This document shows positions 35,701 to 38,700 of a stretch of DNA of 64,000 nucleotides, piece by piece. The stretch lies in NCBI RefSeq assembly GCF_003790525.1, contig NZ_CP033635.1. One strand, given 5' to 3'. A program made the position numbers. Every line of letters begins with the position of its first letter. Position 1 is the stretch's first letter. The DNA comes from Escherichia coli (lineage in GTDB: Bacteria; Pseudomonadota; Gammaproteobacteria; Enterobacterales; Enterobacteriaceae).

Positions 35701-38700
35701 TATGCTCCACAGTCCATGCTGGCTGAGGACGGCAGGCGTATCATTATGGCATGGATGAATATGTGGGATTCACCCGTGCCCACCCGCAGTGAAGCCTGGG
35801 CAGGATGTCTGACGCTGCCCAGAGAGGTTTTTGAGCGCGATGGCCGGCTGTGCCAGCGACCTGTGCGTGAAGTCGAATCTCTGCGCAAAAAATGCCAGCC
35901 ATTATCCCCTGTAAGGTTACAGGGTTTGCAATTACTGACCGAAAATGTACAGGCCGCAGAATTATTGGTGACGTGGCATACGGTTGACAGTCATGCGGAG
36001 CACTATGGCGTCCGCCTTGGAGACGGTCTGCGACTTTATGTGGATAATCAGGCCGGGCGACTGGTACTGTGGCGCTATTACCCTGAGGAAGGGTTGGATG
36101 GTTACCGCAGTGTTGAACTTCCTGATACAGAATATCTGACTCTTCGTATTTTCTTGGATCGTTCATCTGTTGAAGTGTTTGTTAACGATGGTGAGGCAAC
36201 CTTATCAAGTCGTATTTATCCGCAAGCGGACTCGAGACAATTATCGTTATATGCCGCTCATGGCGATGCGATATTAACTGATGGCACTTTATGGATGCTG
36301 ACCTGAGACATATCGATATCAGTATTTTTTCTGACATTATCTGTCATTACTTTGCCAGTACACATTAATTATCTTTGCTGTGTGCTTTTGGTAATGTGTT
36401 GCGATTATATATACCAGTCTGGTGAAGAATATGAATGGTATTTTGTGTTGATACAGAGAATATAAGAGTACCCACATTTGTTTTTATTTAAGGGGGTAAA
36501 ATGAATAAGTTACTTTTGGGTTTATCTCTTTTTTTATTACTGGAATACAATGCGTGTGCAGCAAAAACAGGGGGGCTAACGCTTGAACAAAGAATGGCAT
36601 TGCTGGAAGAACGCCTGGAAGCTGCAGAAAAAAGGGCGGAAAAAGCAGAAAGAATGTTAAAGAGTTTTGATATAGAACAACATTCTGAAATACGTCAAAT
36701 TAGTTCAGAGCAGAATAAAAAAGATGCTAACAGCTATGCAGTAGTTGAGTCAACAAAAGAAAAAACATCTTCTCCAGGTTTTCTGCTCTCTGGTTACAAT
36801 GATTTGAAGTTTTATGGTGATGTGGAGTTTAATATAGATGCTGCCAGTAAACCCGGTCAGTTAGTAATGATAAGTTCCGGGGCGAACAGTGAGTCAGTGA
36901 ATGAACGGTGGGACCTTAATGGCCGTATTCTATTAGGTTTTGACGGTACCCGTAAGCTTGATAATGGTTATTTCGCTGGATTTTCAGCACAACCACTGGC
37001 GGATATGCACGGTTCAGTGAATATTGATGATGCATTATTCTTTTTTGGAAAAGATGACGAGTGGAAAGTGAAAGTCGGTCGTTTTGAAGCTTACGATATG
37101 TTCCCTCTAAATCAGGATACTTTCATTGAGTATTCCGGTAATACAGCTAATGATATTTATGCTGATGGCCGTGGTTATATCTATATGATGAAAGAGGGAC
37201 GCGGTCGTTCTGACGCTGGTGGTAATTTCCTCATCAGTAAACAACTCGATAACTGGTATTTTGAGTTAAACACGTTACTTGAAGACGGAACATCTTTATA
37301 TAATAACGGTAATTATCATGGACGATATATGGAGCAGCAGAAAAATGTCGCTTATCTGCGCCCGGTAATTGCCTGGTCGCCAACGGAAGAATTCACAGTC
37401 TCCGCAGCGATGGAAGCGAACGTGGTAAAAAATGCTTATGGCTATACCGATAATAAGGGGAATTTTGTCGATCAGTCCAATCGTTCCGGTTATGGTATTA
37501 GCATGACATGGAACGGTCTGAAAACAGATCCGGAAAATGGCATCGTGGTTACTCTTAATACCGCCTATTTGGATGCCAGTAATGAGAAAGATTTCACTGC
37601 CAGTATTAATGCTCTGTGGAAACGTTTCGAACTGGGTTATATCTACGCACATAATAAGATTGATGAATTTAGTGGTGTCGTGTGTAATAATGGTTGCTGG
37701 ATTGATGGTGAAGGAATATACAACATTCACACCATTCATGCATCTTATCAGTTTGCTAATGTGATGGATATGGAGAACTTTAATATTTACCTCGGGGCTT
37801 ATTACTCAATTCTGGATAGTAACTGTAGATATAGTAATTGTGACATTACCGATGATCGTTACGGTGCCCGATTACGTTTCAAATACTTTTTTTGATGCAT
37901 AGTAACAAAGTATTGTTCCACACTTACATTAACGCGTTTTTCGGGCGCGTCATCAGCGATGCATACGAATGATCGCAGTCTGCCAATGGTCGATTTATCT
38001 TGGTTGCGCAGGGGCGAGCACCGGGCAGGTACCGGCGGCTGACTCTGAAGCTCTGAGTCGGGTAATTGCGTCAGGTCACGAAGGACTGACACGGGTATTG
38101 GTGGCAGGTGATGAAGTACTGAGTGTGGTAATTTCGGGGATGCAATGCAGGAGCTGAGTCAGGTTTGCACTGAGCTGAGGACCCGTAGCGAGCGGGTTCC
38201 TGCTATTTTTCGGTGTCAGGGGCGCAAGTCCCGACGTCGGGACTTGCCGGGAGATTGTCAGGTCATTGACCGGGTGTGAGCGGCTCGACGTAAGCGGTAG
38301 ATATGCCCAATTCCCCCCGATAAATTCATTACCAAACACATTATTCAATTTGTTTTTATTTTTCCGCTTTCAGTCATTATCGCTATCGCTTCGTCGGTAA
38401 TGACTCCAACTTATTGATAGTGTTTTATGTTCAGATAATGCCCGATGACTTTGTCATGCAGTGGATTTGCCCCTATATTTCCAGACACCTGTTATCACTT
38501 AACCCATTACTGGCCCGCTGCCGTAGATATTCCCGTGGCGAGCGATAACCCAGTGCACTATGCGGATGCCATTCGTTATAATGCTCGAACGCCTCTGCAA
38601 GGTTCTTTGCTGCCGTTAACCCGTCTGGTTTGGGCATGATACTGATGTAATCACGCTTTATCGTTTTCACGAAGCTCTCTGCTATGCCGTTACTCTCCGG

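Follow-up and report, generated by a model that had tools for sequence, protein, structure and literature searches.

A probable relic of an IS66-family right end between rafY and IS1 in Escherichia coli

Where does the noncoding DNA between the carbohydrate porin gene rafY and a downstream copy of IS1 come from? The spacer lies within the 64,000-nucleotide stretch of an E. coli contig (NZ_CP033635.1) that is called the window below. An earlier note on this DNA had described four related CTGAG...CAGG units and a perfect 24-bp palindrome in the spacer, had called their origin unclear, and had proposed iteron-like sites, recombinase-binding sites or a remnant of a mobile element's terminus. Only the last of these proposals held up: we consider it very probable, from sequence homology, that positions 37910 to ~38289 are a dead, one-ended relic of an IS66-family element, consisting of a degenerate right inverted repeat and a non-coding tail of ~355 bp. 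The features of the locus are as follows.

36501..37895, + strand: rafY (carbohydrate porin) coding sequence, from the ORF list and the RefSeq annotation of an identical locus (L001)
37910..37933, + strand: probable IS66-family right inverted repeat (IRR), degenerate, GTATTGTTCC^ACACTTACATTAAC, from alignments A1 and A2
37934..38289, + strand: non-coding subterminal tail, from homology to the DNA between IRR and tnpC stop codon in elements that retain tnpC
38020..38175, + strand: phased repeat array, from periodicity statistics, unit spacing, unit consensus and core enrichment
38020-38052: partial unit of the array
38053-38085, 38086-38118 and 38119-38153: full units of the array
38154 onward: short last unit of the array
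38179..38209, + strand: terminator-like hairpin GGACCCG..CGGGTTC followed by CTGCTATTTTT, from a consensus scan; same sense as rafY, inward from the IRR
38224..38247, no strand: perfect 24-bp palindrome GCAAGTCCCGACGTCGGGACTTGC
38288..38291: junction between IS66 homology and the 3' flank of a BRO-N family gene, from the limits of homology to L007 and to E. coli strain 53
38345..38396, - strand: last ~17 codons of the BRO-N family gene, then IS1, from comparison with strain GF153 (L006)
38396..39165: IS1 copy forming the right boundary of the spacer, from its end repeats and RefSeq annotation

The gene labels that had been given to the two sides of the spacer are correct: in the RefSeq annotation of matching genomes, the gene for a carbohydrate porin (RafY) ends at 37895 and an IS1 transposase gene lies downstream of it. 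IS1 itself is delimited by the end repeats GGTAATGACTCC..., at 38396, and GGTGATGCTGCC..., which lies on the minus strand at 39143-39165. Among 5426 complete E. coli genomes, 289 carry the whole 505-bp spacer; in these it is chromosomal, nearly always identical, and always found after the raf operon.

Repeats and palindrome of the spacer

The CTGAG or CTGAC sequences that begin the units are located at 38053, 38086, 38119 and 38154, with spacings of 33, 33 and 35 nt. Periodicity was measured by autocorrelation against dinucleotide-preserving shuffles. The top self-match in the 501-bp spacer begins at 38053 and has 24 identities in 33 positions at an offset of exactly 33 nt, a value equaled in 1 of 1000 shuffles. 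Over a 66-nt segment, the same offset yields 43 matches, whereas the highest count in 500 shuffles was 36. The core GAAGTRCTGASNNNGGTA, with up to two mismatches allowed, has four matches in the whole window, three of them within the array, where 0.21 are expected. By the self-match and the shuffle controls, the four units proposed earlier are real and are not expected by chance. Tandem Repeats Finder reported no array in the spacer, because the units are only ~70% alike.

The palindrome is likewise confirmed, at 38224-38247. Its arms, GCAAGTCCCGAC and GTCGGGACTTGC, comprise 12 nt each, are 100% complementary and have no intervening spacer. Among the perfect palindromes of the window it ranks second in length, and the number of this length expected in 64 kb is 0.004. 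The longest, TCAGCTTCCACCCGTGCACGGGTGGAAGCTGA, measures 32 bp (30385-30416) and is part of the rafR coding sequence (ORF 30304-31314), ~27 codons from the start (...VSASTRARVEAEA...).

A T-run follows the 24-bp palindrome on neither strand, and the terminator scan does not report it as an intrinsic terminator. The same scan reports the hairpin at 38179-38199 with its T-run; together, this hairpin and the T-run (38179-38209) may end the rafY transcript.

Relatives and identity of the block

When positions 37922-38122 of the window were searched by megablast, 204 plasmids and ~750 additional E. coli records had matches of 85-90% identity. On one of the plasmids, NZ_CP118015 of the IncK type (L002), the DNA that matches this segment at 85-90% identity is part of an insertion sequence. 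The match starts at a 27-nt inverted repeat, GTAATATTCCGGCGAACTCATATTGAC, whose partner is 2.7 kb away. The repeat pair has the 8-bp duplication CAGAAAAC on both sides and encloses tnpA, tnpB and tnpC, whose three products are recognized by NCBIfam models as IS66 TnpA, TnpB and TnpC (438 bits for TnpC). In this element, the 361 nt from the tip of the repeat to the tnpC stop codon are taken up by the DNA that is homologous to the window. An 8-bp target duplication is a reported hallmark of IS66 (PMC6778807), and the published IS66 terminal repeat GTAAGCGTCCGGCGAACTCACCTT resembles that of the IncK element (PMC12888890).

The remainder of the block matches a different IS66 member, carried by a plasmid of Salmonella diarizonae (L007). 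Homology to window positions 38103-38286 (84% identity) ends 23 nt before the tnpC stop of this element. A group II intron seems to have disrupted the element's left end, where an intron reverse-transcriptase gene occupies L007 7560-9456.

Five relatives that retain tnpC (L002, L007, L019, L021 and L024) were identified; they are carried by IncK and Salmonella plasmids or by genomes of E. coli and Edaphovirga. Each has a 27-nt GTAA... repeat and, between this repeat and the stop codon of tnpC, the tail with its CTGAG sequences again 33-35 bp apart. Tail remnants accompany a truncated tnpC at three loci (L004, L008 and L013), and shorter remnants are found at three more (L016, L020 and L023). 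Hosts of the further tail variants are E. coli, Enterobacter, Cedecea, Buttiauxella, Edaphovirga and Yokenella. A terminal-repeat pattern scan of genome contigs produced 11 loci, five of which are true Enterobacterales relatives or contaminants (L013, L016, L019, L020 and L021); the other six are chance matches in unrelated taxa. A search of viral contigs with TnpC found no relatives.

The repeat in the window begins 14 bp past the rafY stop codon. It differs from the intact GTAATATTCCGGCGAACTCATATTGAC by the loss of 3 nt and by several substitutions, and its tip reads GTATT. A pattern search for the terminal repeat that allowed five mismatches misses it, and it is recognized by alignment alone: positions 37910-37933 can be aligned to the 27-nt repeat of L002, L004 and L021 and to the published GTAAGCGTCCGGCGAACTCACCTT. 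An identical degenerate repeat follows rafY on a raf plasmid (L005).

The tnpC gene itself is missing from the window's copy, and tblastn with TnpA, TnpB and TnpC of the IncK element gave no match in the whole 64-kb window. Neither a second (left) repeat-like site nor a second copy of the tail was found in the 64 kb, so that a single IS66 end is retained here; the 8-bp target duplication is seen in the IncK relative. Because the IS66 genes are absent, the block is a fragment rather than a complete element, and because a second repeat is lacking as well, this copy cannot transpose.

The homology thereby places the noncoding DNA that holds the repeats and the palindrome in a known type of element, an IS66-family insertion sequence, and its origin need no longer be called unclear. 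Judged by homology, the repeat units and the palindrome belong to the IS66 tail and did not originate in the rafY-IS1 spacer. The mobile-element remnant suggested earlier takes the specific form of a right-end inverted repeat and subterminal tail of this family.

Four other explanations of the block were weighed, each of them very improbable. The first is that it specifies a structured non-coding RNA or acts as an Frpo-type single-stranded-DNA promoter, as known from plasmid leading regions; the latter was considered because most of the plasmid matches are to conjugative plasmids, on which the block sequence is frequent. A 346-nt segment does fold somewhat better than shuffles (z = -2.7 and -2.6 for the two strands). 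However, the IncK homologue folds no better than its shuffles (z = -0.8 and -1.3), and RNAalifold gives the 10 variants a weak consensus structure (energy -8.4 kcal/mol, covariation term -1.0). Rfam gave no relevant match, its sole hit being a chance snoRNA match inside rafY (E = 0.87). Frpo requires a long imperfect hairpin that presents -35 and -10 boxes, yet DNA folds of the window and of L002 contain a long hairpin on neither strand, and the consensus scan found no promoter-like site. We therefore regard this explanation as very unlikely, albeit the least improbable of the four.

RefSeq calls over the array, at 37969-38157 on the + strand, are hypothetical proteins of 58-62 residues (WP_023154806.1 and WP_162843692.1). 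The 33-nt period could accordingly be that of an 11-residue repeat in a small protein, as it is a multiple of 3, and the ORF at 37969-38157 (WP_023154806.1 in some genomes) reads ...LSRVIASGHEG LTRVLVAGDEV LSVVISG.... RefSeq makes such a call in a few genomes. However, E. coli 08-00022 (L011), like the IncK copy, has ACG instead of the ATG start codon, the boundaries and frames of the ORF differ in every variant, and units of 34 or 35 nt disrupt the reading frame. Pfam has no matches for the ORF, and the window and the IncK copy differ by four substitutions in units 1 and 2, three of which alter the amino acid (alignment A2). Because neither start codon nor frame is conserved in relatives, the hypothetical protein call is probably spurious, and we give a coding origin of the period slightly less credence than the RNA or promoter explanation.

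Even less likely is that the repeats and palindrome are res- or att-like sites of a site-specific recombinase, such as the tyrosine integrase of the island. Arrays of sub-sites with dyads are typical of res sites, and a tyrosine recombinase gene does lie upstream of rafR; this integrase, however, is ~8 kb distant, with the whole raf operon between. The copies on IncK plasmids, in SpLE1 and on the Salmonella plasmid have no adjacent recombinase gene and are always beside an IS66 tnpC or its remnant, and the five relatives that retain tnpC place the block between the IS66 repeat and the 3' end of that gene. Least credible of all is that the array consists of iterons from a plasmid replication origin that arrived together with the raf operon: this operon is also plasmid-borne (L005) and matching sequence is common on conjugative plasmids, but a rep gene is adjacent in none of the contexts examined, the ~70%-alike units with their ~18-bp conserved core differ from the near-identical 17-22-bp direct repeats of iterons, and in five independent relatives the block resides inside an IS66 element, between terminal repeat and tnpC stop.

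The object is, then, an ordinary relic of an already known insertion-sequence family. What is mildly new is a conserved phased array at the right end of one IS66 subgroup.

A mosaic at the joint of operon and island

The IS66-family relic forms only part of the spacer, whose junctions were defined from three comparison loci. Homology to L007 ends at 38286-38288, and homology to the 3' flank of the BRO-N gene in E. coli strain 53, where this flank is present without any IS66 DNA, begins at 38291. The part of the element containing tnpC, tnpB, tnpA and the left repeat is deleted at this 38288-38291 junction. In strain GF153, which has no IS1 here, the BRO-N gene is intact (792 bp) and its stop codon corresponds to window position 38345. 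The "spacer" is consequently best described as a mosaic of an IS66 right-end relic, a BRO-N gene flank and IS1, a description whose value is mainly as annotation.

Several observations were made around these junctions. The intact BRO-N gene of GF153 occupies L006 6450-7241, and its loss in the window is associated with IS1. Beyond the IS1 copy (39165 onward), the window continues with different DNA, including a disrupted TPR gene with an IS21-family insertion. GF153 also has a group II intron reverse-transcriptase gene (L006 8979-10487) inside an IS3-family element beside the raf island.

A further change of sequence type occurs at the other edge of the block. The window is identical to the raf plasmid L005 from rafY to 37945, and is only ~80% identical thereafter. 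With E. coli 08-00022, it shares 384 of 389 positions from 37933 to 38321 (5 mismatches); in that strain, the left flank is different from that of the window and the repeat is better preserved. Most simply, two IS66 tails that had diverged would have crossed over somewhere in 37933-37945 and thereby joined the raf operon to island DNA. Because the sequence switches within these positions from the type of the raf plasmid to another E. coli type, the relic may have served as a patch of homology linking the two. It would then mark the joint between raf operon and island, and document the entry of a plasmid-type sugar operon into a chromosomal island that is found in 289 of the 5426 complete E. 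coli genomes.

Possible role in active elements and comparison with known systems

Conservation among the tail variants is concentrated in the array. A consensus of 23 units from eight variants has a conserved core of ~18 bp, tGAAGtaCTGAgtnnGGTa, joined by linkers that vary. CTGAG or CTGAC sequences are spaced 33-35 nt apart in all tail variants, which have two to four units each, the window type having the most. In the IncK element, the conserved core GAAGTACTGAG..GGTA is confined to the right-end tail and is absent from the left end and from the rest of the element. Between L002 and L007, identity is 73% for the TnpC proteins and 47% for the four-fold synonymous sites, the latter a figure to be set beside tail identity only with the knowledge that gap-tolerant alignment has a baseline of 62-73% already. 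The compared variants are thus far apart, and invariant blocks of 10 nt are unlikely to be neutral. As wholes, the tails of distant variants are barely above shuffled controls in identity; therefore, constraint appears to be limited to short blocks.

In active elements, the phased cores might be binding sites for transposase or an accessory protein, which would mark the right end. The reasons for considering this role are that the spacing (~three helical turns) would place cores on the same face of the helix, that only the cores are conserved, and that they are restricted to the right end. By analogy, it is possible, although we hold the idea tentatively, that the array is a right-end-specific protein-binding region in intact elements. 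A broader proposal, which we hold equally tentatively, is that the array and the nearby hairpin or palindrome form a functional cis module specific to the right end in an enterobacterial IS66 subgroup, either as a binding array for TnpC, TnpA or TnpB or as a preferred landing site for further copies. If the cis-module proposal is true, the window holds a fossil of such a module. In the literature searched, no description of a phased array at the right end was found.

At the equivalent position, 8 of the 10 variants of the tail (alignment A3) have a small GC hairpin and, after it, a (G/C)CT(A/G)TTT stretch. In active elements, this inward-facing hairpin could stop read-in transcription antisense to tnpC. 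The palindrome is found ~45-90 nt past the tnpC stop in intact relatives. It is perfect in the window and in L011, pairs at 10 of 12 positions in L007 and at 11 of 12 in L024 (where two changes are compensated on both arms), and is imperfect in L023. In the IncK, Enterobacter/Cedecea and Buttiauxella/Edaphovirga variants it is absent, with other sequence in its place. Across the family, pairing is observed in 63% of cells, a value equaled by 30 of 500 shuffles and so indistinguishable from controls. The palindrome is perhaps a clade-specific hairpin or dimer site in the region 3' of tnpC.

Two loci contain nested right ends. In SpLE1 of the O157 Sakai strain (L004, ~4985-5300), a second right end (repeat and tail) directly follows the CTGAG(T) core of a truncated first tail, and the same arrangement is found in a different IS66 lineage on the S. 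diarizonae plasmid (L007, 4745-5060). The junctions are ...GAAGAACTGAG joined to GTATTGTTCCGG and ...GGTACTGAGT joined to GTGCTTCCGG, respectively. The two Sakai copies differ by ~10%, so different copies are nested here and a recent duplication is not the explanation. The element itself may insert preferentially at the repeat cores.

To our knowledge, the biochemistry of IS66 transposition is poorly known, and TnpA and TnpB are poorly understood. The phased array offers a cheap experimental handle on this process.

IS679 of E. coli plasmid pB171 is a classic IS66 element of the tnpA-tnpB-tnpC type. The block resembles classic IS66 elements (for example, ISPsk01) in that it lies at the tnpC-distal end and in that its relatives have a terminal repeat of the GTAA...TCCGGnGAACTCA type, an 8-bp target duplication and the three-gene set. 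It differs in that the window's copy has one degraded end and no genes, and in that its relatives have a long non-coding stretch between the tip of the repeat and the tnpC stop: 361 nt in the IncK element, 303-306 nt in L007 and L024, and 247 nt in the Enterobacter/Edaphovirga variants. In the neighboring IS682 of the Sakai strain, repeat and tnpC stop are separated by ~30 bp.

The TnsB sites of Tn7, the att sites of Mu and the multiple terminal repeats of IS21 are transposon ends at which protein binds several sites. Like these ends, the tail has several short cores at one end, ~three helical turns apart, and is asymmetric between the two ends. Unlike them, its core is no obvious copy of the terminal repeat. 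The similarity is one of sequence layout.

In tIS66 elements (ISPa75-fosZ), passenger DNA is located between the transposase gene and the right repeat (PMC12888890). The extra DNA of the present tail occupies the equivalent slot, 3' of the DDE transposase gene and inside the right repeat. In contrast to the passenger DNA of tIS66, the tail is free of genes and is made up of a repeat array and hairpins.
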